The notes beneath the pieces are model-generated. The model saw nothing but the letters and a program-made list of their open reading frames with translations. It was not told the origin of the DNA and made no database searches. Shown piece after piece: positions 8,705 through 40,643 of a stretch of 64,000 nucleotides of DNA (within the stretch, counting starts at the first letter, position 1; every line of letters starts with the position of its first letter). Origin of the DNA: Bacillota bacterium (GTDB taxonomy: Bacteria > Bacillota > Sulfobacillia > Sulfobacillales > JAIMBI01); assembly GCA_021795575.1 (NCBI GenBank), contig JAJYPH010000001.1, positions 5,128-69,127 on the forward strand. Reading direction: 5' to 3'. A program made the position numbers and the translations under genes.

Positions 8705-8761
8705 CGCACCGGGACGAGTCCCACGAGCCCGGTTGGCCGGGCGGAGTCGGCCGGGACCTCA

Positions 8762-10138: not shown

Positions 10139-10154
10139 GCGATCCCTCCCGCCA

Positions 10155-11402: not shown

Positions 11403-11403
11403 C

Positions 11404-12804: not shown

Positions 12805-12915
12805 CCGTAGACATCCGTCGCACTTTGTCCGTTCAGGAGCGGCGACCGTTGTATCCTGCCGCCTGCAGTCTCTACCTTCTATACGTTAGCCGGGGGTGTC
12901 GACACGGCCCTTAAA

Positions 12916-12946
12916 AGCCCAGGGCGGCTCGTGGCCGCCCTGGGCT
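12916..12946 (-). terminator. stem-loop terminator downstream of the S53 peptidase gene
   Basis: Perfect 13-bp stem agcccagggcggc / gccgccctgggct with a 5-nt loop, 22 nt after the stop at 12969. On the minus strand it is followed by TTTAAGGG. Confidence 0.6.
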
Positions 12947-12968
12947 GGTCTCGCTCCGTGGACCTCGG

Positions 12969-19318: not shown

Positions 19319-19324
19319 GACGCA

Positions 19325-23675: not shown

Positions 23676-23966
23676 TCACGGCGTGTCCGGAGGGAGCGCC
23701 GCCATGCGGTCCAGCACCAATCGGTAGCCGCCGGCCCCCCGATACAGGCAGCGGCGCACCCGGCTCACGGTCGTCGACGACGCGCCGGTTTCCACCTGAA
23801 TCGCCTCGTAGGTTTGGCCGCGGTCCAAGCGTCGGGCAATGTCGAGCCGCAACACCAGCTCGTCCTGTTCGTGCGGCGTCAGCCAGTCCTCCAACAGCTG
23901 CCCCAGCTCCACCGGACTCTGGACCGTAGACAGCGCCGTGTACAGCAGGCCCAAACTATCGGCCAC
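23676..23966 (-). CDS. TrpR-like YerC/YecD-family DNA-binding protein (candidate histidine-regulon repressor)
   Basis: Conserved core LLYTAL..ELGQLLEDWLTPHEQDELVLRLDIARRL..GQTYEAIQVETGASSTTVSRV. GTG 23966 with SD AGGGAGGG 7 nt upstream. Overlaps the hisC stop by 11 nt. Confidence 0.75.
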   Translation of the reverse strand: MADSLGLLYTALSTVQSPVELGQLLEDWLTPHEQDELVLRLDIARRLDRGQTYEAIQVETGASSTTVSRVRRCLYRGAGGYRLVLDRMAALPPDTP

Positions 23967-25077: not shown

Positions 25078-25218
25078 ATGGGACTCCTCCTCGCTATGGC
25101 CGCGCATCGCGACACATCACCCAGTATCCCATCCGACACAGGCGCCGCCAAGTCAGTGCACGGGATGGCGCCGGGCCACCGCGCCGAGGGTCCGATGGCC
25201 GGGATCCTTTGGTGGGCG

Positions 25219-25247
25219 CCGCCAGGCGGTCAGCGTGCGCCTGGCGG
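25219..25247 (-). terminator. GC-rich stem-loop downstream of the YcaQ-like gene
   Basis: ccgccaggcg / cgcctggcgg 10-bp stem with a 9-nt loop, about 100 nt after the stop at 25349. There is no U-tract, so function is uncertain. Confidence 0.35.
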
Positions 25248-25348
25248 ACCGTTTGGGACCCACACCGATTCGGGGGCCCAGCTTTGGCGGCCCGCGGCTG
25301 GACGATCGCTGCGCCCATTCGTATGCGAAGCGATGGGGTCCACCCGGG

Positions 25349-26668
25349 TTACGGAGCTAAAGACCCCATCACCTCACGCGCATCGTGGAACCGGGCGAAG
25401 CGTTCGATGCCGTTCTGCCATGCCCGCCGAAATGCGGGATCTCTTTGAAGGCCTTCCTCCTCGATCCACAGTCCCTGGATCTTCAGGACGTTCGTTGAGC
25501 GGTCCAGTTTTGGATCCATGCGGCCCACCAGCCGGTCTTGATAGAGAATGGGCATGGTGTACGCACCCCACCGACGCGTCTCCGCTGGCTTGTAAATCTC
25601 CCACACGCATTCGAACCCAAAGAGCTCCCGCAGCCGCTCCCGTGGCGCCACCACGTTGTCGAGCGGTGACAGGAAGGTGACTTCCACGTCCGTCCCCGTC
25701 GCCGTGGCCCACTCATGGGGCACGGCTCCCCGAGAGAGCGTGTCCAGAAGCGCCAAGTACTCCGCGTGCACGAACCGCGCGGCGTGTGCCCCCGCGACGG
25801 TGACTGGGACGGCGATCCCGGCCGCAATCAGGTCCGTCATCCAGGCCGCGGCCTCCTTGGGACCGACGGGCTCGAACAGCCTATAGCCGACGCCCCCGGA
25901 CCATTCCCGGAGAGTGGGTAGTGCCGAACGGCGGAGCACCTCCTGGGCGGCGTGGGTGCGAACCGCTGGTTCAGCGACCGGGTCGCCCGTCGGGGGAGCG
26001 ATGCGTTCCGTAAGGTCGTAGATGCGCTCGAATCCTTCCCGGTGATGGGTCATGAGCTCACCGGTGAGCCAGAGGTGGTAGAGGGCCAGTCCGGCGGCGC
26101 TGCTTGCCCGGCCCGACCTCACCGGCGTTTGGTCGGGCAGGTTGCGGGCCGACACGGGTCCCCGGTCCCGGACTACAACCCGAACCTCGTCCACCAACGC
26201 CGCATGGTCGGTGAGAAAGGTCCGCACGCGCGGCTCGTCGCGGCGGCGCGCCTTATGACGTTCCCAGTACGGATATTCTTCGATGGGGTATACGTCGAGA
26301 TGGCCGCCATACTCAAAGAACCGCCGGTCCTGGTACACCAGGGTGCCGAGGTCATCCCGCCGGTATCCTGACACCCGGCTGCTCAGTACGAGGTCGTGGC
26401 TGCGGGACACGAGGGAGACCGGGTCGAGCTGGAGGTGACCCAGGGCATGAATCGCACGGGCCGTCCCCTCCTTGTCCGCCCACCGGCGTCCCGGCCACAA
26501 GCCTTGCACCCCAAGAAGAAAGCGCCGGGCGACATCCCCGGTTATCTCTATGGATTCGATGGCACCCCAACCTCTCGCCGAGTCGTAGCGCGGGCGCCGC
26601 CGCGGGGCCGGCGTCCAGGCGGCGCCTGAACAGCACGCGCCTCCGACCGCGGGGCAACCAATCCGCAC
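25349..26668 (-). CDS. YcaQ/AlkZ-like winged-helix DNA glycosylase family protein
   Basis: ARRFLLGVQGLW..LGHLQLDPVSLVSRSHDLVL..RRFFEYGGH..YPYW is typical of the family. The start is unresolved: the nearest in-frame starts are GTG 26668 and ATG 26746, and the track maximum is 26941. Confidence 0.75.
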   Translation of the reverse strand: MRIGCPAVGGACCSGAAWTPAPRRRPRYDSARGWGAIESIEITGDVARRFLLGVQGLWPGRRWADKEGTARAIHALGHLQLDPVSLVSRSHDLVLSSRVSGYRRDDLGTLVYQDRRFFEYGGHLDVYPIEEYPYWERHKARRRDEPRVRTFLTDHAALVDEVRVVVRDRGPVSARNLPDQTPVRSGRASSAAGLALYHLWLTGELMTHHREGFERIYDLTERIAPPTGDPVAEPAVRTHAAQEVLRRSALPTLREWSGGVGYRLFEPVGPKEAAAWMTDLIAAGIAVPVTVAGAHAARFVHAEYLALLDTLSRGAVPHEWATATGTDVEVTFLSPLDNVVAPRERLRELFGFECVWEIYKPAETRRWGAYTMPILYQDRLVGRMDPKLDRSTNVLKIQGLWIEEEGLQRDPAFRRAWQNGIERFARFHDAREVMGSLAP

Positions 26669-27139
26669 GGGCCGTGGGTCCGGCGACCGCCGCCACGGGA
26701 CCACTATAGCCCGTGGCTGACCAGCATTCGTGGCGTGGTGGGCCATGTCCTGCACGAGGCTGGGGGGAGAACGCCGGAGCTGTGGCCGGGCGCGCGCCAC
26801 GCGATCCGAGCGTGACTCAGTAGCCCGCGGCACCACACGCCCCGGCCGGAAACCCAAGGGGGAGTCATCGGGGCCTGATGGCCCACTCTCTCCGAGCACG
26901 TCCGTCGGGCAGACGTCGTTTCCCGCGGATCCGTGCCGCAATCCCCGCCCCTTCGGTAAACCAGCGTGTTGACTCCCTAATGCTTACCCGGCACGGCCAA
27001 GGAGCGTGATATCGACGACCAGTTCGCCGCTCGGTGTCACGGACCGCCAGGCGCTCGGCGCTCCGTGGGGTCCCAGCGGAAGCACTCCCACGGCCACGCC
27101 AGCCGGCGCGCGCCCCGCTGACGCGCGGCAACCCGAGGA

Positions 27140-28147
27140 TTAGGTCTCGGACGGGGGGGCTGCTTCAGATCGCGCCTGCCACGCCTGCATCACCCGGTGG
27201 GCTTCCACGACGTTCCCGGTGAGCAGCACCGCGGTCGACGCGCCCACGGTCACCCGACCGCTGAGCAGTGCGGCCACGCCCACGGCCGCCGCCCCTTCCA
27301 CGATCAGGCGATGGTGATCCAACAAGAAGCACAACGCCTCGACAATTTCCTCTTCGCTCACCTCAACGAGGTCATCCACCCAGTGGCGTACCAGCGCCAG
27401 CGTGAATTGGTTGTCCGCGCCGACACCCCCCAGCAGGCTGTCGGCCCACGTGGGGGCCTCGGGCGCATCGACGGGACGGCCGGCCCGCACGCTCGCCGCC
27501 ATGCTGCCCGCATGCCGGGCGCCCACCCCAATGACCCGGGCCGCAGGATGGACGGCCTTCACGGCAAGCGCCACACCGGACAGCAAGCCTCCTCCCGATA
27601 CGGGAACCAGGACGGTGTCGACGTCGGGGCAGCGGTTCATCAAATCCCACCCGGCCGTCCCCTGCCCCGCAATGACGTCAGGATCGTCAAACGGGGGCAC
27701 CAGCAGGAGGCCCTCGGCGCCCGCCGCTTCCTGGCACCGGCGGGCGGCATCCTCCTGGGTCTGCCCGCTTACCGTCACCTGGGCCCCCCACTGCTGCAGC
27801 TGGGCGACTTTCACCGCGGGCACGGTGGTGGGAAGAAACACGCGCGCGGGCACGCCCAAACGCTGGGCCATATACGCCACGGCGGTGCCGTGATTGCCTG
27901 TGGAGAACGTGGCGACGCCTGGGAGCTCCCCACCAAGCTGTCGGGCCACCAAGGCGTGGGCCGCGCCCCTAATCTTGAACGAACCGACGGGATTGAGAAA
28001 CTCCAGCTGCAGGGCGACGCGTCCGCCGGCCACGCGGCCCAGCGGGAGGGACGGCACGAGCGGCACCGGCCACACCCATGGCCGGATCCGCTGGTGCGCC
28101 CGCCACACATCCTGAGCCGTGGGAACCCGGTACTCCCCCGGGTTCAC
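27140..28147 (-). CDS. PLP-dependent threonine/serine dehydratase-fold enzyme, EutB-like
   Basis: SFKIRGA carries the PLP lysine, with GNHG and GGGLLSG motifs and no ACT domain. ADSLLGGVGADNQFTLAL matches my recollection of the hydroxyectoine-dehydratase EutB signature. ATGA overlap with the M24 gene. Confidence 0.8.
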   Translation of the reverse strand: MNPGEYRVPTAQDVWRAHQRIRPWVWPVPLVPSLPLGRVAGGRVALQLEFLNPVGSFKIRGAAHALVARQLGGELPGVATFSTGNHGTAVAYMAQRLGVPARVFLPTTVPAVKVAQLQQWGAQVTVSGQTQEDAARRCQEAAGAEGLLLVPPFDDPDVIAGQGTAGWDLMNRCPDVDTVLVPVSGGGLLSGVALAVKAVHPAARVIGVGARHAGSMAASVRAGRPVDAPEAPTWADSLLGGVGADNQFTLALVRHWVDDLVEVSEEEIVEALCFLLDHHRLIVEGAAAVGVAALLSGRVTVGASTAVLLTGNVVEAHRVMQAWQARSEAAPPSET

Positions 28148-29343
28148 GCCGACCGGCCCGTGGGAAATTCCGTCTTGGTCAGCAGGTCGCGCGTGAAGTG
28201 GGTCAACAATTCAACGCCGGTGTCGGTCACAGCCAGCGTCTCACTGATTTCCAGCCCGCGCGGTTCGACCCACATCCCCGCAATGAGATGAAAGGTCATA
28301 CCCGGCCGCAGCAGCGTGCGGTCCCCCGCCCGCAGGCTGGCCGTGTGCTCACCCCAATCGGGCGGGTAGCCGACGCCCACCGCATACCCCAGCCGCGACG
28401 CCTTTTCGTATCCGCTGGCGGCGAGGCAGCGGCGCCACGCCGCCTCTACCTCCTCACACACCGCGCCCGGCCGCGCCGCCTCCAGCGCGGCGTCCACGCC
28501 TGCCAGCACCACGTCGGCCAGGCGCCGATAGTCGTCGGGGGGCGTGCCCAGATACAGCGTGCGGGCCAGCGGGGCATGGTACCGGTGGCGGCAGCCCGCC
28601 AGCTCCAGGTTCACCACGTCCCCCACCTGGTAGCTGCGGTCCACCCAAGTGAGATGCGACGCCGTCGTGCGCTCCATGGAAGGCATGAGCGGCACAATCG
28701 CGGGATAGTCGCCGGGGAGACCCTCCAGGCCCTCGATTTCGGCGCGAAAAATCTGGGCCGCCGCGTCGGCCTCGCGCACCCCAGGCTCAATCACGGCCAG
28801 CGCCGTCTCCATCGCATACTGGGCAATGGCCGCCGCCTCCCGCATCAGGGCCAGTTCCGCCGGGGACTTCACGCTCCGGACCCAATTCACCAGGAGGCTC
28901 GCATCCAGCCAGGTGGCGGCTGGCAGGAGCCGCTGCAGGGCCAGGTAGGACTGCGCGGTGAAGTAGTACGCGTCCAATTCCAGGCCGACGCGGCGCTGGT
29001 CGAGATGGAGCTCGCGCAGCAGCGCCGCGACGGTCTCCATGGGGTGATGATCCGTGGACTGAATGTAGGTCTCGGGATAGGCGCGAATGTGGTCCGCCGA
29101 CAGCCACGTCGTCAGGCGCGCACCGTTCGCGTCCTGAGGCCGGCCGATCCAGTACGGTTCGGGGTCCCAGCCCACCACCACCACCATTTGCGGGACGTAG
29201 AACGACCAGCCGTCATATCCGACCAGGTAGTTCATGTTGGCCGGGTCCGCGACCAGCAGCACCTCGATGCCAGCACGACCCATGCTCTGCTGGACGTTGT
29301 GGATCCGAGCCTGGTATTCCCCCACGCTGAACGGCCTCTCCAC
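28144..29343 (-). CDS. M24 creatinase/prolidase-fold hydrolase, DoeA/EutD (ectoine hydrolase)-like
   Basis: Has a creatinase_N domain plus an M24 domain. Motifs include GYDGWSFYV, GDYPAIVP, HLTW, RYHAPLARTLYLG, YPPDWGE and PGMTFH. GTG 29343 with AGGAGG 8 nt upstream gives 400 aa; the track ORF to 29628 is filler. Confidence 0.8.
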   Translation of the reverse strand: MERPFSVGEYQARIHNVQQSMGRAGIEVLLVADPANMNYLVGYDGWSFYVPQMVVVVGWDPEPYWIGRPQDANGARLTTWLSADHIRAYPETYIQSTDHHPMETVAALLRELHLDQRRVGLELDAYYFTAQSYLALQRLLPAATWLDASLLVNWVRSVKSPAELALMREAAAIAQYAMETALAVIEPGVREADAAAQIFRAEIEGLEGLPGDYPAIVPLMPSMERTTASHLTWVDRSYQVGDVVNLELAGCRHRYHAPLARTLYLGTPPDDYRRLADVVLAGVDAALEAARPGAVCEEVEAAWRRCLAASGYEKASRLGYAVGVGYPPDWGEHTASLRAGDRTLLRPGMTFHLIAGMWVEPRGLEISETLAVTDTGVELLTHFTRDLLTKTEFPTGRSA

Positions 29344-29393
29344 CGCCACCGCCTCCTGCTTCTTCCTGTCGCTCGAGTTGGGTTGCCGACCGG

Positions 29394-30038
29394 TCAGCGG
29401 TACAGCGCCTGCCGCCGCTCCAGGGTGCTGCCGATGCGCGACAGCGTCAGATTGATAATGAGATACGCGATGGCGGCCATGCCGTACATGATGGCCGGCT
29501 GCTCGGTGGCCGACGTGCCCAGCCGCGCCTGGTACATGATGTCGGCAATCCCCACCAGATACAGCAAGGTCGTGTTTTTGACCTGGAGCACCAAAAAGGT
29601 CATCAGCGAGGGCAGCATGACCATCCACGCCTGCGGCAGAATGATTCTTCGCAGCGCCTGCACCCGCGTGAGCCCCAAGGCATCGGCGGCCTCGCGCTGT
29701 CCCACGGACACCGCTTCAATTCCGGCGCGGAAAATCTCCACCGCATAGCCCACGCCATACAACACCAGCCACAAGAGGCCGGCACTGAAGGACGACAGGT
29801 TGATTTGGAACTGGCTTAGTCCAAAATAGATGATAAACAGCTGCAGAATCGGGGGCAGTCCGCGGATAATCTCCACGTACACCGTGATGGCGCCCCCCAA
29901 AAGCTTGCCGCCGTAAATCCGCCCGACGGCGGCCAGTATGCCCACCACCACCGAGACAGCCACCGCGATCGCCGTCAGCTCCAAGTCGACGCCGCCGCCA
30001 TCGACGATGGCTTGCCAGTACAAGGCCACCACATGCAT
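29394..30038 (-). CDS. polar amino acid ABC transporter permease
   Basis: 214 aa His/Glu/Gln/Arg/opine-family permease containing an EAA-loop-like segment (GQREAADALGLTRVQALRRIILPQA). ATGA overlap with the ATPase gene. Confidence 0.88.
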   Translation of the reverse strand: MHVVALYWQAIVDGGGVDLELTAIAVAVSVVVGILAAVGRIYGGKLLGGAITVYVEIIRGLPPILQLFIIYFGLSQFQINLSSFSAGLLWLVLYGVGYAVEIFRAGIEAVSVGQREAADALGLTRVQALRRIILPQAWMVMLPSLMTFLVLQVKNTTLLYLVGIADIMYQARLGTSATEQPAIMYGMAAIAYLIINLTLSRIGSTLERRQALYR

Positions 30039-30865
30039 CAGGGATGGTCACCTCCCAGTGCGGTCGTGGCTCCGGGGCCACTTGCTTGACCATCCCCCGC
30101 GGCCTCCAGGGGCTTTAAGACACGGGTGAGAAATGTTCGGGACCGCTCGCTGGTGGGATGCTCCAGCACGTCGCGGGCCGGCCCGGTTTCCACCACGCGG
30201 CCGTCCGCCATCACCACCACGGTGTCAGCCACTTCTTTGGCAAACTGCATCTCGTGGGTCACCAGAATGAGCGTCATCCCCTGCGCCGCCAGTCCCCGGA
30301 TGGTTCCCAGCACCTCTCCGACCATCTCGGGGTCCAACATAGACGTCGGCTCGTCAAACAGCATCACCTCAGGGTCCATGGCGAGTGCACGGCAGATGGC
30401 CACGCGCTGCTGCTCGCCCCCCGACAGGCGACGCGGGTACGCCTCGGCTCGGTCCGCCAGCCCCACCGAGGTTAAGAGCGCCATCGCCTTGTCTCGAGCC
30501 TCGCTCGCCGGCACCCGCTTGGTTTCCATGGGACCCAGCATGACGTTGCCCAGCGCGGTCAGGTGGGGAAACAGGTTGAACGTCTGAAACGCCATGCCCA
30601 CCTGCATGCGAATCTGCCGCAACGTCGCCTTGCTGGGCGGTCCCCCACCGCCGACCAGCTCATGGTCCAGCACCCGGATGCGGCCAGCCTCGAACGGGTG
30701 CAGGTAGTTGATGCACCGAATGAACGTACTTTTCCCCGCCCCGCTGGGCCCGATGACGGCCACCACCTCGCTCCGGTGCACCTGGAACGAAATGTCCTCA
30801 AACACCGTGCGCGGCCCGAACCGCTTCGTCAGTCCTTGAATGTCAACTACGACGTCGCTGGACAT
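30038..30865 (-). CDS. amino acid ABC transporter ATP-binding protein
   Basis: Walker A GPSGAGKST, signature LSGGEQQRVAI, Walker B MLFDEPTS. ATG 30865 (MSSDVVVDIQGL) with SD GGTGGGAG. About 35-aa C-terminal tail. Confidence 0.9.
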   Translation of the reverse strand: MSSDVVVDIQGLTKRFGPRTVFEDISFQVHRSEVVAVIGPSGAGKSTFIRCINYLHPFEAGRIRVLDHELVGGGGPPSKATLRQIRMQVGMAFQTFNLFPHLTALGNVMLGPMETKRVPASEARDKAMALLTSVGLADRAEAYPRRLSGGEQQRVAICRALAMDPEVMLFDEPTSMLDPEMVGEVLGTIRGLAAQGMTLILVTHEMQFAKEVADTVVVMADGRVVETGPARDVLEHPTSERSRTFLTRVLKPLEAAGDGQASGPGATTALGGDHP

Positions 30866-31502
30866 TAAGCTCCCACCTCGCCAGGATGCGTGATAGTAAG
30901 ATGTAGAACGCAAAGTACACTAGGCCCGCCAGCAGGAACATGTCCATGGGCTGAAACGTGGCGGCCGCGGCCGCATTGGCCTGAAACATCAAGTCGGTCA
31001 CGCCGATCGTCAGCACCAGCGACGTGTCCTTGATGAGGTTGCTCAGCTCGTTGGTCCCCGGCGGCAAAAACGCCAGAAACGCCTGCGGCAGCACAACCCG
31101 GCGCATCACCGCGCCGTTCGACAAGCCCAACGCGACCGCGGCCTCGCGCTGCCCCGGGTCGACCGACTGCAGACCGCTCCGCATGTCCTCGCCATAGAGC
31201 GTCCCGTAAAAGGCCCCCAGCGCCACGACGCCGGCCCAAAACCCGGGCAGACGCAGTCCCAGCTGGGCGAGACTGTAGTACGCCGTAAACAACAGCACTA
31301 GGACCGGCACCGCCCGAAACACTTCCACGTATCCGGTGGCGATGGCCGCCAGGATGCGGATCCGTCCCGTGCGGGCCAACACCAACAGCGTGCCCAGCGC
31401 CAGGGCCAGCACGAGCGCGGCCCCGGTCAGCTGCAGCGACACCACCAATCCCGCCAGAAACTGGGGTAGGTATTGGCCCCACAACTGCAGCGTGCTCATC
31501 AC
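30843..31502 (-). CDS. polar amino acid ABC transporter permease
   Basis: 219 aa. This second permease of the same family (GQREAAVALGLSNGAVMRRVVLPQA) gives an Ehu-like two-permease layout. Confidence 0.88.
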   Translation of the reverse strand: MMSTLQLWGQYLPQFLAGLVVSLQLTGAALVLALALGTLLVLARTGRIRILAAIATGYVEVFRAVPVLVLLFTAYYSLAQLGLRLPGFWAGVVALGAFYGTLYGEDMRSGLQSVDPGQREAAVALGLSNGAVMRRVVLPQAFLAFLPPGTNELSNLIKDTSLVLTIGVTDLMFQANAAAAATFQPMDMFLLAGLVYFAFYILLSRILARWELNVQRRRS

Positions 31503-31577
31503 CCCCCTGTTGTCCTAACCTGTAGCCGCCTGGCGAGCCGGCTGCCGTGCCTCCGCTTCGCCCCCTCCCCGTGCGCA

Positions 31578-32444
31578 CTAGCCTCCCTGATAGCTGTTCG
31601 GCGCCTGACAGATGCCGTTCAAAAACACGGGGCTTTTCATCCCGTACTGGTCCAGCATCTTTTGCTCCTGGCCGTTGCACGCAATCTTTTTCAGGTAGGC
31701 GTTCAACTTGGCGAGGAAGCTGGCGCTGTACTTGCCCTTAGGAATCCCGTAGTAGCCGCGCAGGCTGGCCAGCGGTGGCGCAATCGACGACGGCATCGCG
31801 CCGAGGATCTTGATGTTCAGCGACGGGTTTTGGTGGATGGCCCACGCCACGTCCGTGTCGGGCTGAAAGTCGGCCGCGACGCGGCCCGTGGACAGCGCCT
31901 GGAACGAGTCGGCGATGTTGCCGTACTGTTTCACCACGGCGTGGGGCACCTTTTGGGCCTCCGTCACTTCCTCCGAGCCTACCACCACCGCAATTTTCTT
32001 GCCAGTCATGGCGGATACGGTCGGCCGCGTGATTTGGGGATGCGTCGCGCTGACCGCCACCACATCGTTGTAGTTCAGCATGGGTCGGCTGAAGCTGATG
32101 ACCTTCGCCCGCGCCGACGTGTAGTAGATGTCAATCGTGATGTCGGCTCGCTTGGACGCCACCGCCTCGATCGACGCGGAGAACGGCAGCGAATCGACCA
32201 CCAGCTTGGCTCCCAGCGTTTTCGCGAATCCCTGGAGAATGTTCACGTCGTAGCCGGTCCACTGGTGCGTGGTGGGATTCTGGAAGTCCTCGGGGGCGTA
32301 GGCCGATTCTGCAATGATCAGCTTGTGCGTCTGCTGCACTTGGGCCAGCAGGGTCGCCGGGGCACTGGCGCTGCTGCCGCAGGCGGCCAGCGTGGTCAGC
32401 ATCGCGCCGGCCATGAAGCCATACCAGATCTTTTTCCAGGTCAT
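31578..32444 (-). CDS. family-3 solute-binding lipoprotein of the ABC importer
   Basis: Lipobox in MLTTLAACGSS. Type-3 SBP fold features are present. SD AAAGGGAGGG before ATG 32444. Confidence 0.85.
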   Translation of the reverse strand: MTWKKIWYGFMAGAMLTTLAACGSSASAPATLLAQVQQTHKLIIAESAYAPEDFQNPTTHQWTGYDVNILQGFAKTLGAKLVVDSLPFSASIEAVASKRADITIDIYYTSARAKVISFSRPMLNYNDVVAVSATHPQITRPTVSAMTGKKIAVVVGSEEVTEAQKVPHAVVKQYGNIADSFQALSTGRVAADFQPDTDVAWAIHQNPSLNIKILGAMPSSIAPPLASLRGYYGIPKGKYSASFLAKLNAYLKKIACNGQEQKMLDQYGMKSPVFLNGICQAPNSYQGG

Positions 32445-32507
32445 GATGCCCTCCCTTTCGTGAACAGCGCTCTCAAGGCGCTCGCTTTCGACGTCCGGAC
32501 CGGGTCC

Positions 32508-33962
32508 TCACCGGGATATCGCGTCTGACAGGTTGAAACACACCACCTTCGTCTCGGTCATGGCTTCGGCGGCATACCGGACGCCCTCCCGCCCCAGTCC
32601 ACTGCCCTTGAAGCCGCCGAACGGCATGTGGTCGACACGGAAATCACTGCTGTCGTTGACCATCACCCCCCCCACGTGGAGCTCCCGAATGCACCGATGG
32701 GCCAGATCCAGGCTTCGGGTGAACACCCCCGCCTGCAGCCCGTAGGGCACGTCATTGGCGCGGGCGATGGCCTCATCGACACTCGATACGGGGAAGACGC
32801 TCACCACCGGCCCGTACACTTCTTCGCGATAGAGGCGGCTGGTTCGCGGCACATGAGCCATGACCGTGGGGGCGTAGAAGGCGCCCTGCCGCGTGCCCCC
32901 CACCAGCACCTCCGCCCCGCCGGCCACGGCTTCGGCCACCCACTCCCCGATCCGAATGGCTTCGCGCTCGTGGATCATGGGACCCATGTCCGTGTCCTCC
33001 GCCAACTTGGACCCCATGCGCCGGGCGCGCGTCCGGCCCACCAATTGGTCCATGAACCGGTCAGTGACGCTGTCGGCAACAAACACCCGCTGCACGCCCA
33101 GGCAGTTTTGTCCCGCGTTGCTAAAGGCGCCCGACGCGATGGCGTCGGCCGCCCGATCCACATCGGCGTCCGCCAGCACCAGCACGGGCGAATTAGCCCC
33201 CAACTCCATGGCCAGCTTCTTTAAGCCCGCCTGGCGCGCGATGGCCTCGCCGGTCGCCAGCCCGCCGGTGAACGACACCATGGCCACGGCGGGATGGCTG
33301 ACCAGCACGCCGCCAAGGCGCGCGCCGCTGCCCGTGACGACGGCCAGCACTTCGGGGGGCACGCCCGCCTCGAGCAGGGTTTCCACGAGCAGCAGCGCCG
33401 ACAGGGGCGTCGCGCTGGCGGGCTTGAGCACGACGGCATTGCCGGCGGCTAAGGCCGGGCCCACCTTGTGGACGACCAGATTCAGGGGGTCGTTGAACGG
33501 TGTGATGGCCGCCACCACGCCCAACGGCACGCGTTCGTAATATCCGCGGCGCCCCTCGGCGCCCGGCCGCCGGTCGAAGGCAATCGTCTCCCCCGCGAGG
33601 CGCGCGCTTTCTTCAGACGCCAGACGCAGGGTGTCCACCGCGCGGCGCACCTCAGCGCGCCCCTCGCGGATCGTTTTGCTGCTCTCGCAGGCAATCGTGT
33701 AGGCAAACGTCTCCGCACGGCTTTCCACCAAGTCCGCCGCATGCCGCAGCATGCTCTGGCGCTCGTGGACCGCCAGCCGCCGCGCGATGTCCGCCCCCGC
33801 CGCCGCGCCCGCGATCGCGTCGGCCATCATGGTATCGGTGCCATCGGGCACCCGCCCAATGACCGATCCATCTTCCGGGTCATGGACCGCCAACGTCGCG
33901 TCCGTGGCTACCCACTGCCCCTGAATCAGGTTCTGCGGAGAGGTCCGCTGCAGGTTCGTCAT
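32508..33962 (-). CDS. NAD(P)-dependent aldehyde dehydrogenase
   Basis: 484 aa ALDH with ELGANSP (catalytic Glu), FSNAGQNC (catalytic Cys) and the EEVYGPV motif. 4-nt overlap with the upstream gene. Confidence 0.88.
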   Translation of the reverse strand: MTNLQRTSPQNLIQGQWVATDATLAVHDPEDGSVIGRVPDGTDTMMADAIAGAAAGADIARRLAVHERQSMLRHAADLVESRAETFAYTIACESSKTIREGRAEVRRAVDTLRLASEESARLAGETIAFDRRPGAEGRRGYYERVPLGVVAAITPFNDPLNLVVHKVGPALAAGNAVVLKPASATPLSALLLVETLLEAGVPPEVLAVVTGSGARLGGVLVSHPAVAMVSFTGGLATGEAIARQAGLKKLAMELGANSPVLVLADADVDRAADAIASGAFSNAGQNCLGVQRVFVADSVTDRFMDQLVGRTRARRMGSKLAEDTDMGPMIHEREAIRIGEWVAEAVAGGAEVLVGGTRQGAFYAPTVMAHVPRTSRLYREEVYGPVVSVFPVSSVDEAIARANDVPYGLQAGVFTRSLDLAHRCIRELHVGGVMVNDSSDFRVDHMPFGGFKGSGLGREGVRYAAEAMTETKVVCFNLSDAISR

Positions 33963-35020
33963 GACGCACCACCTTCCGCGGCCCGCGGGTGCGGGCCACG
34001 CACCACGTCCAACAGGTCGCGCAGCAGGGCATAGCCGGTCTCGCGGCGCCCGGCGCCGGGACCCATCAAGGTGACATGACCCAACAAGTCCGTCTGGTAG
34101 GTGATGGCATTCATGACGCCGGGGACTGCCGCCAGCGGGTCATCCCCTGCCAGTAGCTCCGGCTGCACCGTGGCTCGCAGCGGGCCCTCCCGAGCGTCCA
34201 GCGCCGCCACCAGCCGCCAGTGCCGACCGCGAGCGCGAGCGTCGGCCAGCTCGGCATTGCCCACCCCCGTGATGCCGGTGCGCTCGACACCCTCCACTGA
34301 CAGGGGCCGCCCCAGCACGTGGCGAGCGAGGATGACCAGCTTGTACGCCGCGTCGAAGCCTTCCACATCCCCGCGGGGATCGGCTTCGGCATAGCCCGCC
34401 GCCTGCGCCTCCGCCAAGGCGCCCGCATACGACGCGCCGTCTTCCATGCGGCTCAGCATGAAGTTGGTGGTGCCGTTCAGAATCCCACGCACGCTGCGCA
34501 CCGTGTCCCCGGCCAGGGTCTCGCGGGCCAGCCGCAGCGCGGGCGTGCCGCTCATCACGGTGCCCTCCACGCCCAGCCGCACGCCGCGCGCCGCCGCCAG
34601 GTGAAACAGCTCGTCATACGCATGCACCAGCGGCCCCTTGTTCGAGGTCACCACATGTTGGCCCCGGTCCAGCGCCATCCGGCAGTGCGTCGTGGCCGGC
34701 TCGCCCGATGGCGTCGTCGGCGTGGCCTCCACCATCACATCGGCGTCGGCGCCGACAATGGTGTCGAGGCTGTCCCATCCGCGGCCCAGCCCGTCCTGGT
34801 CGGGGTAGGTCCGAATCCCCTGGGGCGCCTTGAGCGCCGTCAGCAGCGCCGCGACATCGAGGCCCCGCGCCCGGGCGGCCGCGCCCCGCACCGGGTCCGA
34901 TACGGCCACCACCGCGACGTTCAAGCCATAATGCGCCGCAAGGTGGGGACCGCGATCCCTCAGCAGCTCGAGGAAGGCTCGGCCCACCCCTCCGCATCCA
35001 ATCAAGGCCACCCTCACCAT
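33959..35020 (-). CDS. homoserine dehydrogenase-family oxidoreductase (no ACT domain)
   Basis: MVRVALIGCGGVGRAF Rossmann start at ATG 35020, with GGAGGAGGG 9 nt upstream. Catalytic-domain motifs GILNGTTNF and EADP. Confidence 0.8.
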   Translation of the reverse strand: MVRVALIGCGGVGRAFLELLRDRGPHLAAHYGLNVAVVAVSDPVRGAAARARGLDVAALLTALKAPQGIRTYPDQDGLGRGWDSLDTIVGADADVMVEATPTTPSGEPATTHCRMALDRGQHVVTSNKGPLVHAYDELFHLAAARGVRLGVEGTVMSGTPALRLARETLAGDTVRSVRGILNGTTNFMLSRMEDGASYAGALAEAQAAGYAEADPRGDVEGFDAAYKLVILARHVLGRPLSVEGVERTGITGVGNAELADARARGRHWRLVAALDAREGPLRATVQPELLAGDDPLAAVPGVMNAITYQTDLLGHVTLMGPGAGRRETGYALLRDLLDVVRGPHPRAAEGGAS

Positions 35021-36273
35021 ACGGGTCGTCCCTCCTCCCCATCCGCCTCGTCCGTCACGACCCCTGTGCGCAGGCGGGCGAGCGCGGTCCGCGCCGTCTC
35101 CGCCAACCAGGCGGCCCCCAGCGGCAGGACTCGTTCGTCCAGGGCAAACGCGGGCGAGTGCAGCGTGGTGGCCTGCCCCTCGACTCCGCACCCGACGAAG
35201 GCCAGGGCGGCGGGCACCTGCTCCGCGACGTACGCAAAGTCTTCGGCGCCCATCCCAAACGGCTGGCGACGCACCCGCACGTGAGGAGACAGCGCGGCCA
35301 GCGCATCCGCCAGGACCTGGTTGGCCCGCCCATCGTTGCGCAGGGGGGGTTCGCCGCGACGAATGTGCAGGCGATAATCGCCGCCCAGCGCCCGGGCCAC
35401 CTGAAAGGCCCGCTCCAGCTCCTCGGCCAGCTGCTGGCGGAGCACGGGAGAATAAGTCCGGAGCGTGCCGTCCAGCGTCACTTCAGTGGGTGTCACATTG
35501 GGGGCGGTTCCGCCTGCCACGCGTCCCACCGTGATCACCGCACTGTCCAGCGGCGACACCCGCCGCGACACGATCGAGTGCAGCACCGTCAAGACCGGCC
35601 CCAGCAGCCACACCGGATCCAGGGCCCGGTCCGGATAGCCGGCATGGCCGCCCCGTCCCATGACGGTGCCTTCGAACACATCACAGCTGGCCATGGCGTA
35701 TCCGGTCCAGAGATCCACCGTGCCCGGTGGCGCCTCGGGGTTCATGTGCAGCGCAAACGCCATGGCCACCTCTTCCAGGATGCCAGCTTGGATGAGGTGG
35801 TACGCGCCCGTACGTCCCTCGTCGTCCGGCGACTCCTCCGCCGGCTGAAACACCAGCCGCACGCGGCCCCCGAGCGCCCCCGCACGCTGCCACGCATCCA
35901 ACTGCGCCGCCGCACCCAGCAGCATCGCGACGTGGCCGTCGTGTCCGCACGCATGCATGCGGCCCGGAATCTTGGAAACGAACTCCGCGCCAGCCGGCTC
36001 ATCGATGGGCAGGGCATCCATGTCGGCGCGCAGGAGCACCACCGGACCCGATCCTTCGCCCACGTCGGCCACCACGCCGGTACCGCCCACCTCGGTGCGG
36101 ACGCGAACGCTGGACCACTGATGGAGACGCTCGGCAATGTAGGCCGCGGTCTCGAACTCGTGAAACGCCAACTCGGGATGGGCGTGCAGATGGCGGCGGT
36201 CGCGCACCAGCGCCTCGCGCGCCCCCGGCGTCATCCGGCTCCCCCAGGAGGGCCCGTCACCGTCCGTCGCCAT
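35014..36273 (-). CDS. M20/M25/M40 amidohydrolase (N-acyl-L-amino acid amidohydrolase/hippuricase type)
   Basis: LHAHPELAFHEFETAAYI, RADMDALP and MHACGHDGH motifs. ATG 36273 with SD AAGGGTGG. Confidence 0.82.
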   Translation of the reverse strand: MATDGDGPSWGSRMTPGAREALVRDRRHLHAHPELAFHEFETAAYIAERLHQWSSVRVRTEVGGTGVVADVGEGSGPVVLLRADMDALPIDEPAGAEFVSKIPGRMHACGHDGHVAMLLGAAAQLDAWQRAGALGGRVRLVFQPAEESPDDEGRTGAYHLIQAGILEEVAMAFALHMNPEAPPGTVDLWTGYAMASCDVFEGTVMGRGGHAGYPDRALDPVWLLGPVLTVLHSIVSRRVSPLDSAVITVGRVAGGTAPNVTPTEVTLDGTLRTYSPVLRQQLAEELERAFQVARALGGDYRLHIRRGEPPLRNDGRANQVLADALAALSPHVRVRRQPFGMGAEDFAYVAEQVPAALAFVGCGVEGQATTLHSPAFALDERVLPLGAAWLAETARTALARLRTGVVTDEADGEEGRPVW

Positions 36274-36307
36274 CACCACCCTTTCGGCGCGTTCTGTGGC
36301 GCACGGC

Positions 36308-37525
36308 TCAGCGGGCCGCCGCGGCCTGACCCGTGGCCGCGAGCGCTCCGTCCAAGTCCGCCAGCAGGTCGTCCACGTCCTCAATGCCGACGGAATACCG
36401 GATCAGGGCTTCCGGGATGCCCAGGGCCTCGCGTTCGTCTGAAGACAGTTCCACGTGGCTGGTGGTGCGCGGCGGCCCGGCGACGGTTTCCACCGCACCC
36501 AGATTGGCCGCCAAATGGGCATACCGCAGACGCGGGAGCATCGTCCGCACGGCTTCAAACCCGCCCTGGATGGCAAACGACACCACACCGCCAAATCCCC
36601 GCATCTGTCGTTTCGCGATGGCATGGCCGGGATGGCTCGGGAGCCCCGGGTAGTAAACCTGCGCGACCGCGGCATGCTGCTCAAGAAACTGGGCGATCGC
36701 GAGTGCGCTGGCGTTTTGCCGCTGAATCCTGAGGTCCAGCGTCTTCATGCCTCGGAGCAGCAGATAAGCCGCCTCGGGATGCAACGTGGCGCCGTTCACC
36801 TCGCGGAAGTGAAACAACTGGTCAATCAGAGATTTGGACCCGCACGCGACGCCTCCGAGGGCGTCGGCGTGCCCCCCTAAAAATTTCGTGGCACTGTGAA
36901 TCACCAGGTCGGCTCCGAGTGCCAACGGTGACTGGTTGATGGGGGTGGCGAACGTGTTGTCCACCACCACCAGCGCCCCATGGCGATGGGCTGTCGTGAT
37001 GAGGCGCTCGAGGTCCAGCACCTTGAGGGTGGGGTTGGTGGGGGATTCGAGGTACAGCAGCTGGCAGCCGCGGGCAATCTCCGCCTCGATGGCTTCGTGG
37101 TCGGTGGTTTCGCACAGCGCCACCTCGATATTAAATCGCGGGAGAAATTCCAGGAACAGCAAACTGGTCCCGCCGTACGAGTCCTTGATGGACACGACCC
37201 GGTCCCCCGGGCGGAGGAGGGTAAAGAGCGTGTTGCTAATCGCGGCCATCCCGGTGGAAAAGCTGGTGGCCGCCTCTGCCCCTTCCAGCAGACGCACCTT
37301 TTCTTCGAAAGCTTCCACGGTGGGATTGGTGTTCCGCCCATAGATATGTCCGGGCGCTCGGCCCATCGCCACGTCAAACCACGTGTCGACATCCTCGTAG
37401 CCAAACGACACACTGTGCACCACCGGCACCTGCGTGGCGCGTCCCGGCCACTCGCCGGCGTCTCCCCCCCATACGGCCACCGTACCGGGCCGTGCGGGCA
37501 TCCTGCTGCCGCTGTTCATGTCCAT
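36308..37525 (-). CDS. Cys/Met-metabolism PLP enzyme (cystathionine gamma-synthase / gamma-lyase family)
   Basis: 405 aa. YGRNTNPT and HSATKFLGGH (PLP lysine) are typical of gamma-family transsulfuration enzymes. The start may be the third codon, ATG 37519, which has better SD spacing. Confidence 0.85.
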   Translation of the reverse strand: MDMNSGSRMPARPGTVAVWGGDAGEWPGRATQVPVVHSVSFGYEDVDTWFDVAMGRAPGHIYGRNTNPTVEAFEEKVRLLEGAEAATSFSTGMAAISNTLFTLLRPGDRVVSIKDSYGGTSLLFLEFLPRFNIEVALCETTDHEAIEAEIARGCQLLYLESPTNPTLKVLDLERLITTAHRHGALVVVDNTFATPINQSPLALGADLVIHSATKFLGGHADALGGVACGSKSLIDQLFHFREVNGATLHPEAAYLLLRGMKTLDLRIQRQNASALAIAQFLEQHAAVAQVYYPGLPSHPGHAIAKRQMRGFGGVVSFAIQGGFEAVRTMLPRLRYAHLAANLGAVETVAGPPRTTSHVELSSDEREALGIPEALIRYSVGIEDVDDLLADLDGALAATGQAAAAR

Positions 37526-37568
37526 ACCCCCTACGCTCGTTGCTGCTTTAAGACTCGGTGCGACGCCC

Positions 37569-38549
37569 TCACGGGCGCAGTTCCTGCCCCACCTCCTCCG
37601 CGAGCGCCCGTTGATACGCCAGGCGGGCCACGGCCGTATCCTGGATGCCGGTCCCCGTCAGGTCGCACACCGTGACTTGGTCCGACGCCGTCCGGCCCGG
37701 ACGCCGCCCGGCCACCACCGCGCCCAGCTCCCACAGGCGACCGGGATCCAGACTCCCCGCCTCCACGGCGTGGCGGCTGTCGCCGAGGGTGAGCGCCTGC
37801 GCGCGCACATCGCACACGGCGACGTCCGCCCGGCGCCACACGTCCCCCGCCAGCTCCTGCTTGTCGGGGGCATCCGCCCCCATCGCCGTAATGTGCTGAC
37901 CCGCATGCAGCCACTTCCCCTCGACGAGCGGCGCACGTGACGGCGTGGCCGTCACCACCACGTCACTGGTGCGCACCAGCCGCTCGAGATCGGGCGTGGG
38001 CTCGGCCTCCCGGTGCAAGTCCCGCGTGGCCCGCTCGGCCAGCTGACGCGCATGGTCCGACGTCGGGCTCCACACCAGCACCCGCCGGTACGGCCGCACC
38101 AGCAGCAGGGCGCACAGTTGAAACCACGCCTGCACGCCGCTGCCCACCAGCCCCACCGTGTCCACGCGCGGGGGTGCCAGCCACTGGGCGGCCACCGCGC
38201 CGGCCGCGGCCGTCCGCACCGTGGTCAGGTATCCGCCATCCAGCAGCAGGGCCACCGGCGTGCCGGTGGCCGCGCTGAACAGCACCATCAGCCCGTCGCC
38301 GCTCGGCAGGCCGCGCGCCGGGTTGTCGAAAAATCCGGTGGACATCTTGACGGCAAACGAGTCCCAGCCGCGCGCGTGGGCGGTTTTGACATCAATTTCC
38401 CCGCGCGATTCCGGCAGGTCCAGTCGCAGGATGGGCGGCGTGGCCACGCTGCCCTCCCCCAGCGCCCGAAACCCGTCCGCCACGGCCGCGACGACGTCGA
38501 GCGACAGCGGCACCAGGCGACGGATGTCGGACTCCGCCAATACTCGCAC
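37569..38549 (-). CDS. ornithine cyclodeaminase/mu-crystallin family protein, EutC-like
   Basis: OCD-family body with the GSGVQA Rossmann motif. GTG 38549 (VRVLAESDIRRL) with AGGAGG 6 nt upstream. First gene of the 11-gene operon. Confidence 0.8.
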   Translation of the reverse strand: MRVLAESDIRRLVPLSLDVVAAVADGFRALGEGSVATPPILRLDLPESRGEIDVKTAHARGWDSFAVKMSTGFFDNPARGLPSGDGLMVLFSAATGTPVALLLDGGYLTTVRTAAAGAVAAQWLAPPRVDTVGLVGSGVQAWFQLCALLLVRPYRRVLVWSPTSDHARQLAERATRDLHREAEPTPDLERLVRTSDVVVTATPSRAPLVEGKWLHAGQHITAMGADAPDKQELAGDVWRRADVAVCDVRAQALTLGDSRHAVEAGSLDPGRLWELGAVVAGRRPGRTASDQVTVCDLTGTGIQDTAVARLAYQRALAEEVGQELRP

Positions 38550-38763
38550 GACGCACCTCCTGCCGCGAATCTCATCCCCCTGAGCTTGAGGGCAGCGGTT
38601 CGCCCCCACAACCGCGACGGTGTACAAAAATCAGGACAGCGCATGCGGCACATTGCCGGAACAGTGCGAATCGACAGCCGTCCCATGAGCAGGATCCGCC
38701 AGCGGCGGCGACGAAGAAGGCATCACGAGCCCGCTGCGCTGCGGGAAAGAGGGGGCGGATCCC

Positions 38764-40293
38764 ATGACGTTCACCGTGGCCGACCTGATGGGCCTGCCCA
38801 TCATGCGGGGGGCCCACGAACTGACGGGGGTGGGTGGCCCGCGACCCATTCGCTCGGTTTCGGTCATCGAGGCGCCGGTGGAAGAGTTCGTGCGCGAGGG
38901 CGAGTTGGTGCTGACCACCGGCATGGGATGCACGGAGCCGGAACCGCTGCTGGCGCTGGTGGCCGACATTGCCCGCGCCAAAGCGTCGGCGGTCGGGATT
39001 GCCACCGGCTACTACGTCGCCGCCATTCCGTCCGCCGTGGTCGATCTGGCGCAGTCCTGGCACCTCGCCCTGGTGGACATCCCGTGGGAGGTGCGCTTCT
39101 CGGAAATTACGGAGGCGGTGTCCGAGGTGCTGCTGGCCGAGCGCCGCCAGCTACTGGATCAGGCCAAAGAGATGCAGTCGGATGTGTGGCGCGTGATCCT
39201 GCGGCACGGCAGCGCCTCGGACGTGCTGGCGGCCCTGGCGGCCCGCATCGCGGCGCCGCTGTGGATCGCCGACGCCGATGGCGGCCTGCTCGCGGGAGAT
39301 CCGACCGCCGCACCCGGCGAGGCGCTCACGGTCCCCATCCGTTCGACCACCCGCTTGGAGGGGTACCTGCACGTCGTCGCGGCATCCCCGGGGTCCGTCG
39401 ACCCGGACTTGGCGTCCGAGGCGGCCAGTGCCCTGGCCACGTGGTTTCTCTATCAGGAGGCCGAGCGCCAACGCCGCTTTCAGTCGCGTGACGCCCTGTT
39501 GTGGAGCCTGGCGTACGGGGAGGTGGACCCGAGCGACGTCGCGGACCGGGCCCAGATTTTCGGCTATCATCCGACCCGCCCCTATCTGGGTCTATTGGGC
39601 CGCGTGGACCACGTGGACCCCACGGAAGGATCCGAGGCCGGCGTGCTCAGTACGGTGCACGCGTTGGTGGTGAAATCCCTGGCGCGGTGGTCGCCGGCTC
39701 CCCTCGCGGCACGGCGCGGCGACAGCTTTTTGGTGTATCTCGAAATCCGACCGGGGGATCCCGTGCAGGTAGCCCGCCGCTTTCTGGACGACCTGGATCG
39801 GCGGCTCCGGGATTTGAGCCCTCGCGTGGTGATGTCCTGGGGCATTGGCTTGGCCGACCAACCCGGGGATCGGTTCCATCACGCGTACCGCCAAGCGCAC
39901 GAGGCGCTGAACATCGGCTATGGGTTGGCGGGGCCGGGCCACCGCACCTACTTCAGCGATGTGCGGATCTATCAGATGTTGCTGCACCTGGCCCAGGAGC
40001 CCGTGGCCCAGGAGCTGCTGGCGGCCACGCTGAGCCCGCTTGACGCGTACGACGACAAGCGCCATGGGGAGTTGGTCCCCACCCTCGACGCCTTCATTCG
40101 CACGCGCGGCCAAATCAGTGAAACGGCCCGCCTCCTGAACCTGCACCGCCAGTCCCTCACATACCGGCTTTCGCAGATTGAACGGCTGACGGGCCGGACC
40201 CTGGACGACCCGGAAACCTGGTTTCTGTTTTCGTTCGCGCTGCACATTCGGAAGCTGCAGACGGCGACGCTGCATCTCCATCCCGAGGCCTGA
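38764..40293 (+). CDS. PucR-family transcriptional regulator
   Basis: 509 aa with an N-terminal PurC-like sensor domain (LMGLPIM..VSVIEAP..GELVLTTG) and a C-terminal PucR HTH (ISETARLLNLHRQSLTYRL). Divergent from the catabolic operon. Confidence 0.88.
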   Translation: MTFTVADLMGLPIMRGAHELTGVGGPRPIRSVSVIEAPVEEFVREGELVLTTGMGCTEPEPLLALVADIARAKASAVGIATGYYVAAIPSAVVDLAQSWHLALVDIPWEVRFSEITEAVSEVLLAERRQLLDQAKEMQSDVWRVILRHGSASDVLAALAARIAAPLWIADADGGLLAGDPTAAPGEALTVPIRSTTRLEGYLHVVAASPGSVDPDLASEAASALATWFLYQEAERQRRFQSRDALLWSLAYGEVDPSDVADRAQIFGYHPTRPYLGLLGRVDHVDPTEGSEAGVLSTVHALVVKSLARWSPAPLAARRGDSFLVYLEIRPGDPVQVARRFLDDLDRRLRDLSPRVVMSWGIGLADQPGDRFHHAYRQAHEALNIGYGLAGPGHRTYFSDVRIYQMLLHLAQEPVAQELLAATLSPLDAYDDKRHGELVPTLDAFIRTRGQISETARLLNLHRQSLTYRLSQIERLTGRTLDDPETWFLFSFALHIRKLQTATLHLHPEA

Positions 40294-40304
40294 CCACCAT
40301 GCGT

Positions 40305-40331
40305 GCAGGGTGGGCATCCTGCCCACCCTGC
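40305..40331. terminator. bidirectional stem-loop between the convergent pucR-like and monooxygenase genes
   Basis: gcagggtgggca tcc tgcccaccctgc: perfect 12-bp arms, 12 nt after the pucR stop and 16 nt after the stop at 40347. No U-tract. Confidence 0.5.
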
Positions 40332-40346
40332 GGCCGCACGCGACCC

Positions 40347-40643
40347 TCAGTCCGCCAGCACCGTGTGCATCTCGAACTGATTGGGCTGGGCAAACATGTC
40401 GGCCGGTGCGCGCTGGCCGTGCGCCTCGCGGAATGCCTCGCTGGCCGTCCAGGCCCGGAAGCTGGCTTCATCCTGCCAGTGGGTCATGACCACGTAGGGA
40501 GCGCCCTCCGTGACCGGACAGAGCACCTCGTTGCGCACGAACCCCGGAGCCCGGTCCACCAAGTGCGCACGCCCGCGAAAGCGGGCCTCAAAGTCCGCCT
40601 CGCGGCCGGCCGCCACAAAAATGCGATTGGCCACCACCACCAT
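40347..40643 (-). CDS. ABM-domain monooxygenase (IsdG/HmoA-like heme-degrading type)
   Basis: 98 aa: NRI.V..G..FE.RF..R...V...PGF....VL. and W.DE.SF..W. Strong SD AAGGAGGAAGCAC before ATG 40643. Confidence 0.75.
   Translation of the reverse strand: MVVVANRIFVAAGREADFEARFRGRAHLVDRAPGFVRNEVLCPVTEGAPYVVMTHWQDEASFRAWTASEAFREAHGQRAPADMFAQPNQFEMHTVLAD

Follow-up and report, generated by a model that had tools for sequence, protein, structure and literature searches.

Ectoines rank with the most abundant osmolytes of microbes, and in saline soils and the sea they provide a significant source of carbon and nitrogen. How an operon that looks ectoine-degrading could reach aspartate while lacking the canonical deacetylase and transaminase is the question raised by a stretch of 64,000 nucleotides from a Bacillota bacterium (assembly GCA_021795575.1, contig JAJYPH010000001.1, positions 5,128 to 69,127 of the forward strand), hereafter called the window. 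On its minus strand, 11 tightly packed genes (27140-38549), several with reading frames overlapping by 4-7 nt, follow each other in the order EutC-like protein, Cys/Met-metabolism pyridoxal phosphate (PLP) enzyme, M20 amidohydrolase, homoserine dehydrogenase (Hom), aldehyde dehydrogenase (ALDH), solute-binding protein, permease, ATPase, permease, M24 enzyme and EutB-like protein. All 11 were accounted for by family assignment according to Pfam and NCBIfam scans, and the gene limits are those called on publicly available copies of the contig. Close copies carry the annotation Thermaerobacter sp. MAG (metagenome-assembled genome), Thermaerobacter being a genus of Bacillota. An earlier note, made from the bare sequence, had placed the M20 amidohydrolase, the PLP enzyme and Hom at 33959-37525, and both the scans and the gene calls located the three genes there, on the minus strand, with E-values (1e-37 to 1e-157) too low for the family matches to be due to chance. 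The motif HSATKFLGGH occupies residues 210-219 of the PLP enzyme (36869-36898) and includes Lys214. Hom lacks an ACT domain, given that its NAD_binding_3 and Homoserine_dh domains take up all 353 amino acids. The PLP enzyme, M20, Hom and ALDH genes form one contiguous run of four.

We propose, with about an even chance of being right, that this is a non-canonical ectoine/hydroxyectoine operon in which L-2,4-diaminobutyrate (DABA) is converted into homoserine and then aspartate. In this route, every substrate and product of which is read from family assignments, operon structure and conserved synteny, the M24 enzyme would open the ectoine ring to give N-alpha-acetyl-L-2,4-diaminobutyrate, and the M20 aminoacylase would take off the acetyl group to release DABA, standing in for the AstE-family EutE/DoeB. 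The PLP enzyme would bind DABA by its alpha-amine and eliminate the gamma-ammonium to form a vinylglycine-ketimine, to which water would add to yield L-homoserine and NH4+, in place of the class-III transaminase Atf/DoeD. The ACT-less Hom, working in the oxidative direction, would turn homoserine into aspartate semialdehyde, and the ALDH would oxidise the semialdehyde to aspartate, pulling the unfavourable Hom step forward. Furthermore, the EutB- and EutC-like proteins would convert hydroxyectoine-derived 3-hydroxy-DABA into DABA, while PucR would regulate the operon and the ATP-binding cassette (ABC) system would import the substrate. The gene-content reading and step order of the earlier note are supported by comparative genomics (synteny, exchange of M20 and DoeB, and gene order in Klebsiella); DABA as the substrate, and the choice between gamma-replacement and gamma-elimination, we infer from sequence.

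The enzymes and, above all, the related clusters indicate that this is very probably an ectoine-type catabolic operon. The M24 enzyme matched the solved ectoine hydrolases 6TWJ/6TWK with 373 bits (E=1.6e-110), far above its scores to prolidases and creatinase (≤80 bits), and it is 44-49% identical to PGAP-named DoeA proteins; against TIGR02993 it reached 448 bits (E=3e-134), under the cutoff of 613. For the EutB-like protein the best model was NF005680 EutB (343, under the cutoff of 413), and the EutC-like protein scored 408.5 against the cyclodeaminase model NF006141 (cutoff 408) and 369 against TIGR02992 EutC (cutoff 472). The ABC system had been expected to be EhuABCD, which was ruled out by model scores and by the structure matches of its binding protein; the nearest solved structures of the latter are GlnPQ binding domains, EhuB was not among the matches, and the protein is 69-71% identical to its counterparts in two related loci (L001 and L012). 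As the binding protein is not EhuB-like, the imported substrate is less certain for the window operon than for its relatives. The link to ectoine is settled by the clusters of these relatives: true Ehu systems are carried by L008, L006 and the Klebsiella plasmids, among others, and L008 has ectA/ectB/ectD next door. Separately, the best plasmid matches of the M24 enzyme are haloarchaeal (Haloferax, Haloprofundus and Halopiger; H41-H45), with 52-56% identity versus 44-49% for proteobacterial DoeA.

To collect relatives, species-representative genomes were first scanned with the PLP enzyme, and every protein of the operon then served as a tblastn query. The same gene neighbourhood was found in Bacillota, Acidobacteriota and Chloroflexota. 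The block M24-(ornithine cyclodeaminase)-PLP-M20-Hom-ALDH is present in a second Thermaerobacter MAG, Marinithermofilum abyssi, Halobacillus andaensis, Salimicrobium halophilum, Planococcus, Sulfobacillus and a Bacillota MAG. Gene order in the window is identical to that of L001 and close to that in Halobacillus, Salimicrobium and Priestia, and a PucR gene flanks the cluster in eight loci (L002, L008, L012, L016, L017, L023, L027 and L092). In M. abyssi (L008), EhuB, EhuC, EhuD and EhuA come after the block, each scoring above its NCBIfam equivalog cutoff, and ectA, ectB and ectD, also above NCBIfam cutoffs, lie directly beside PucR and the catabolic cluster (791-4375 of that locus), placing genes for ectoine synthesis and putative breakdown side by side. 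In an Acidobacteriota locus (L006) and a metagenomic one (L086), PLP-Hom-ALDH comes after the binding-protein gene, which in L006 encodes a bona fide EhuB, and a DoeB-like gene and DoeA_2-type M24 genes stand alongside.

Two plasmid settings extend this distribution. Plasmid pBMV_1 of Priestia megaterium ATCC 14581 (L092) carries PucR, eutB (its PGAP name), pdxS, M24, cyclodeaminase, a cystathionine gamma-synthase (CGS)-family gene (product WP_034656301.1), M20, Hom and ALDH. The pdxS gene, encoding a PLP synthase subunit, lies between eutB and M24 (L092 5540-6424), which would fit a high PLP demand from two PLP enzymes. About 28 large Klebsiella plasmids, many of them clinical, carry EutC, an EutB-like gene, ehuADCB, an EnuR-like regulator gene, doeA, doeB and a CGS-family gene, the product of which (WP_032413379.1) is 62% identical to the PLP enzyme of the window; the record examined is of plasmid type IncFIB/IncHI1B. 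No transaminase, ALDH or Hom (no doeC/doeD) was found in this Klebsiella island. The CGS-family gene comes right after doeA-doeB there, which places the PLP enzyme at the DABA step, in the position of Atf. In Klebsiella, the ability to use ectoine appears to be mobile. The doeA-doeB-CGS island was not found in complete Escherichia coli genomes, and our literature search found no paper on the ectoine island of Klebsiella plasmids.

The M20 enzyme is probably the N-alpha-acetyl-DABA deacetylase, as far as model scores and gene distribution can tell. It scored 334 bits against TIGR01891 (cutoff 154), the subfamily to which the M20 N-acyl-L-amino-acid amidohydrolases YxeP and plant ILR1-like proteins also belong, and its nearest solved structure is Bacillus subtilis YxeP (1ysj, E=1e-72), which we take to be an N-acetyl-amino-acid deacetylase. 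Against the DoeB2 model NF038260 it reached 235, under the cutoff of 550, and the M20 proteins of L015 and L088 reached 256-294 bits; the window protein is a paralogue outside this equivalog, and the model itself shows that NCBI curators accept N-acetyl-DABA deacetylases of the M20 type. No source was found in the literature for the NCBIfam models DoeA_2 and DoeB2. An M20 gene is present in the window and ten related loci (L001, L008, L012, L015, L016, L017, L023, L027, L088 and L092), and a DoeB/EutE-like gene takes its place in L004, L006, L086 and the Klebsiella plasmids; no cluster has both. Such mutual exclusion is what one would expect if one N-acetyl-DABA deacetylase had been replaced by another, non-orthologous one.

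Further downstream, the PLP enzyme, Hom and ALDH are clustered in the window and ten related loci, and Hom and ALDH are paired, directly downstream, in all 11 clusters having either of them (the window counted). This constant pairing argues that homoserine and aspartate semialdehyde are intermediates. Hom reached 375.8 bits against NF004912 (cutoff 373), with 3do5 as the best solved match. Over about 200 aligned residues, the ALDH shares about 39% identity with the partial open reading frame (ORF) of S. meliloti Ssd, and it scored 343 against the model for succinate-semialdehyde dehydrogenase (cutoff 646); judging from sequence, it is a member of the same superfamily as Ssd/DoeC, but apparently not their orthologue.

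The PLP enzyme is the most conserved protein of the cluster, with 62-75% identity to cluster-linked orthologues in five phyla, and it belongs to the NF006097 subfamily (685 bits, above the cutoff of 600). With the PF01053 enzymes methionine gamma-lyase (MGL), cystathionine gamma-synthase and cystathionine gamma-lyase it shares the fold, the PLP-binding Lys, the Asp facing the pyridine nitrogen, Tyr-Gly-Gly-Thr, the phosphate clamp formed by Tyr and Arg, and the Arg contacting the alpha-carboxylate; in an alignment of 81 relatives, Tyr62, Arg64, Tyr117, Asp189, Lys214 and Arg376 do not vary. It differs from them in belonging to a distinct, tightly conserved subfamily without sulfur-metabolism neighbours. 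The closest solved relatives are MGLs (about 40% identity, estimated by eye from alignments), and no solved structure or characterised member was found for NF006097 itself. Near the active site the subfamily has a signature of its own (Trp19, Tyr43, Trp49, His60, Arg241/Glu242, Ala340/Asn341, Thr355/Ser356 and Val358/Glu359), which yielded no substrate prediction. From its cluster context we consider it fairly probable that the enzyme acts on DABA, and somewhat short of an even chance that homoserine is its product. The wider proposal is equally tentative, namely that NF006097 is an L-2,4-diaminobutyrate gamma-ammonia-lyase forming homoserine, part of a transaminase-independent and effectively irreversible lower branch that would have spread horizontally in Bacillota, Acidobacteriota, Chloroflexota, Thermodesulfobacteriota and Klebsiella plasmids.

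Two further ideas about this enzyme were set aside. N-gamma-acetyl-DABA as the substrate would require acetamide to leave, and amides leave far less readily than ammonium; in addition, the clustered PLP gene is always accompanied by M20 or DoeB, which would yield free DABA. Arg353, in the loop GPP[R/A]TTSHVE, was considered as a specificity determinant. Residue 353 is Arg in 14 linked and 4 unlinked sequences and Ala in 1 linked and 14 unlinked ones (Fisher p=6e-5, uncorrected for phylogeny). However, because the Klebsiella (Cys) and L004 (Ala) sequences are exceptions and a neighbour-joining tree mixes linked sequences with unlinked ones, it was not used as evidence. This residue aligns with Ala351 of Citrobacter freundii MGL, which presumably lies three residues ahead of an active-site Thr.

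The earlier note had also reported that EutA, EutE/DoeB and a class-III aminotransferase are missing, and this holds throughout the 64-kb window, the part of the genome to which our absences apply. The whole window was searched by tblastn with a class-III aminotransferase, S. meliloti Atf, the DoeB/EutE-like protein of L006, the PGAP-named Klebsiella DoeB and S. meliloti EutA, and none of the five queries had a match at E≤0.04. The Klebsiella DoeB and the L006 protein were included since the S. meliloti record has disrupted eutE and ssd frames; their best E-value in the window was 0.62. EutA was also not seen in Pfam scans of the candidate ORFs of the window. The sole other aminotransferase there (23959-25116) is HisC-like and adjoins the histidine operon, and the remaining mid-sized ORFs belong, according to Pfam scans, to the histidine operon, transporters and unrelated enzymes.

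Compared with DoeABCD of Halomonas elongata and EutABCDE-Ssd-Atf of Ruegeria pomeroyi and Sinorhizobium meliloti, the window operon is alike in having a homologue of the M24 enzyme EutD/DoeA, EutB- and EutC-like genes, an ALDH as the last step, aspartate as the putative end product and a co-located ABC importer. It differs in having M20 for the AstE-family EutE/DoeB and the gamma-family PLP enzyme plus Hom for Atf/DoeD, in lacking EutA, and in having PucR instead of the EnuR and AsnC regulators, an ALDH that is apparently not the Ssd/DoeC orthologue and a binding protein that is not EhuB. Such operons have been reported before: putative Bacillales clusters described as 'pucR-eutBCD-atf / abgB-thrA-adh', with eutE missing, were published recently (PMC13188858, Appl Environ Microbiol, April 2026). 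The window has the same genes in the same order, including the divergent pucR and the missing eutE, and its operon is another member of this cluster type. In that paper the PLP gene is named 'atf', abgB, thrA and adh are given as 'function unknown', and neither a pathway nor an experiment is presented; it mentions neither the plasmid-borne clusters of Klebsiella and Priestia nor the fact that M20 stands in for EutE (PMC13188858). The earlier note's view that the lower route is undescribed is therefore only partly borne out, as the clusters are published and a comparable lower module has been reconstituted with purified enzymes for canavanine degradation in Pseudomonas canavaninivorans and Rhizobiales (PMC9533460). 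There, a PLP gamma-lyase forms homoserine via a vinylglycine ketimine, and an NAD-dependent Hom and an ALDH lead on to aspartate, with the genes clustered (PMC9533460). Both systems thus have clustered gamma-family PLP enzyme, Hom and ALDH genes and share the logic of a gamma-substituted 2-aminobutyrate. In the window, however, ammonia would leave from a C-N bond, whereas hydroxyguanidine leaves from a C-O bond in the canavanine pathway, and no aspartate ammonia-lyase is present; the likeness drawn here is one of pathway logic. Novelty is accordingly pre-empted in part, by the published clusters and the known canavanine module.

Several observations weigh against the route through homoserine. 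The published clusters are stressed as putative, and none has been validated (PMC13188858). All ectoine-specific models scored under their equivalog cutoffs in the window (DoeA 448/613, EutB 343/413 and EutC 369/472), and the binding protein is not EhuB-like (34 bits against the EhuB model, cutoff 191). Approximately half of the orthologues with at least 62% identity to the PLP enzyme stand alone, with no ectoine genes nearby; given this and the high conservation, the family activity may be broader or different. For gamma-elimination of an amine from DABA, we found no described precedent and none is known to us, and the literature search found no paper joining DABA, a gamma-lyase and ectoine. 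A DABA transaminase may also be encoded elsewhere in the genome, and EctB adjoins the cluster in M. abyssi. Furthermore, M24 and the PLP enzyme occur without Hom or ALDH in L002 (Desmospora), L088 and the Klebsiella plasmids, where 2-oxobutyrate would fit equally well as the product. This last observation favours an MGL-like DABA gamma-lyase releasing 2-oxobutyrate and two ammonium ions, with Hom and ALDH clearing a homoserine side product or serving the hydroxyectoine branch. The closest solved relatives being MGLs, the Arg241/Glu242 pair standing where MGL has Lys/Asp, and the canavanine gamma-lyase leaking some 2-oxobutyrate as well (PMC9533460) all point the same way. We nevertheless regard it as unlikely, for Hom and ALDH are adjacent in 11 of 11 clusters, directly downstream of PLP/M20 and with frames overlapping by 4-7 nt in the window, and 2-oxobutyrate would leave them without an obvious substrate.

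The PLP enzyme could instead be a DABA aminotransferase giving aspartate semialdehyde, which the ALDH would oxidise to aspartate while Hom balances semialdehyde and homoserine. Its gene does occupy the atf position and is so labelled in a figure legend (PMC13188858), and fold-type-I PLP enzymes can evolve new reaction specificities. We find this improbable: the protein falls clearly within PF01053 and has the catalytic residues of the gamma family, a Hom working in the biosynthetic direction would bring a catabolic operon no gain, and the Klebsiella plasmids have no ALDH to carry the semialdehyde onward. To our knowledge, no omega-transaminase is known in the PF01053 family. Only slightly better placed is the idea that the substrate of the window operon is not ectoine itself but a related compound, for instance a different cyclic amidine or an N-acylated diamino or hydroxy amino acid. 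The missed equivalog cutoffs and the glutamine-type binding protein would be explained in this way, but the enzymes share 45-75% identity with their counterparts in clusters with bona fide Ehu, ect or doeA/doeB genes, and the M24 enzyme matches ectoine hydrolases with 373 bits, far better than prolidases and creatinase with at most 80. That the PLP enzyme and Hom simply serve methionine/threonine biosynthesis and lie here by chance is suggested by names and family membership alone and is very improbable, with the synteny kept across Bacillota, Acidobacteriota, Chloroflexota and Enterobacterales plasmids, a Hom devoid of the regulatory ACT domain and frames overlapping those of catabolic genes. 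The interpretation of a DABA-to-homoserine route is thus well supported by synteny and is, biochemically, a proposal.

If this proposal is true, the Gram-positive clusters would gain a complete mechanism, and an orphan PLP subfamily that is large, highly conserved and spread over many phyla would receive a function. PLP chemistry would also be extended by a new C-N gamma-elimination. Furthermore, irreversible deamination of DABA might allow ectoine producers carrying EctB to degrade ectoine without a futile cycle. Ectoine consumers were considered restricted to Proteobacteria in a 2018 review (PMC5924519), and the plasmid copies in Klebsiella and in the P. megaterium type strain hint at ectoine use as a mobile niche trait.

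The coordinates of the features are collected in Table 1. Within the operon, the frames of M20 and hom overlap by 7 nt, those of hom and ALDH by 4 nt, and the start of the EutB-like gene overlaps the stop of M24 by 4 nt. The EutC-like gene has a GTG start at 38549 with a GGAGG ribosome-binding site upstream. Scans of the window, whose G+C content is approximately 70%, for promoter and terminator consensus sequences gave no signal above background.

Table 1 Operon genes and divergent regulator in the window, and an example of the Klebsiella island
Feature	Position	Strand	Family evidence or record
PucR-family regulator, divergent	38764..40293	+	Pfam PucR, GGDEF_2, HTH_30; presumed operon regulator
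EutC-like ornithine cyclodeaminase/mu-crystallin enzyme, first operon gene	37569..38549	-	PF02423, 214 bits
Cys/Met-metabolism PLP enzyme ('cystathionine gamma-synthase family protein')	36308..37525	-	PF01053, 428 bits (cutoff 27)
M20 amidohydrolase, N-acyl-L-amino-acid deacylase type	35014..36273	-	PF01546 and PF07687 (M20_dimer)
ACT-less homoserine dehydrogenase	33959..35020	-	PF03447 (NAD_binding_3) and PF00742 (Homoserine_dh)
NAD(P)-dependent aldehyde dehydrogenase	32508..33962	-	PF00171, 523 bits
Lipoprotein-type solute-binding protein (SBP_bac_3), polar-amino-acid ABC importer	31578..32444	-	PF00497
ABC permease subunit	30843..31499	-	BPD_transp_1
ABC ATPase subunit	30038..30865	-	PF00005; EhuA model 272 (cutoff 345)
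ABC permease subunit	29394..30038	-	PF00528; EhuC model 133 (cutoff 197)
M24 ectoine-hydrolase-like enzyme, EutD/DoeA type	28144..29343	-	Creatinase_N and Peptidase_M24
EutB-like PLP (fold II) threonine-dehydratase-family enzyme, last gene	27140..28147	-	PF00291, 240 bits
Klebsiella island, example (L093/L094)	29007-40502		K. pneumoniae J1 plasmid 2, NZ_CP013713.1

Outside the operon, a histidine operon (hisIE, hisF, hisH, hisB and hisD) lies nearby, and a hisC-like aminotransferase gene and an AlkZ-like DNA glycosylase gene are situated between it and the ectoine-type operon; together these genes take up 16659-21444 and 23959-26941 of the window. Variants and neighbours were also seen around the related clusters. 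The L006 and L086 clusters have a DAO-family flavin-dependent (FAD) oxidase, sarcosine-oxidase-like, and a second DoeA_2-like M24 gene between ALDH and the permeases (L006 9527-12214 and L086 13814-16392), which may represent a branch for another substrate. The sister Thermaerobacter MAG L001 carries, as divergent neighbours (701-8294), genes for RpiR, an S58 (DmpA-like) peptidase, amino-acid permeases, a class-III aminotransferase and an FmdA/AmdA-type amidase, none of which was found in the 64-kb window. The L088 variant (2449-13295) comprises GntR, M24, M20, an LIV-type ABC transporter and the PLP enzyme, with a true panB and an aspartate-aminotransferase-like gene where Hom and ALDH would stand. 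Finally, a gene resembling RhtB/LysE 'homoserine/threonine efflux' proteins is present in M. abyssi (L008 113-745), and a LysE-family gene lies near the M24-PLP pair of Desmospora (L002 13412-14041).

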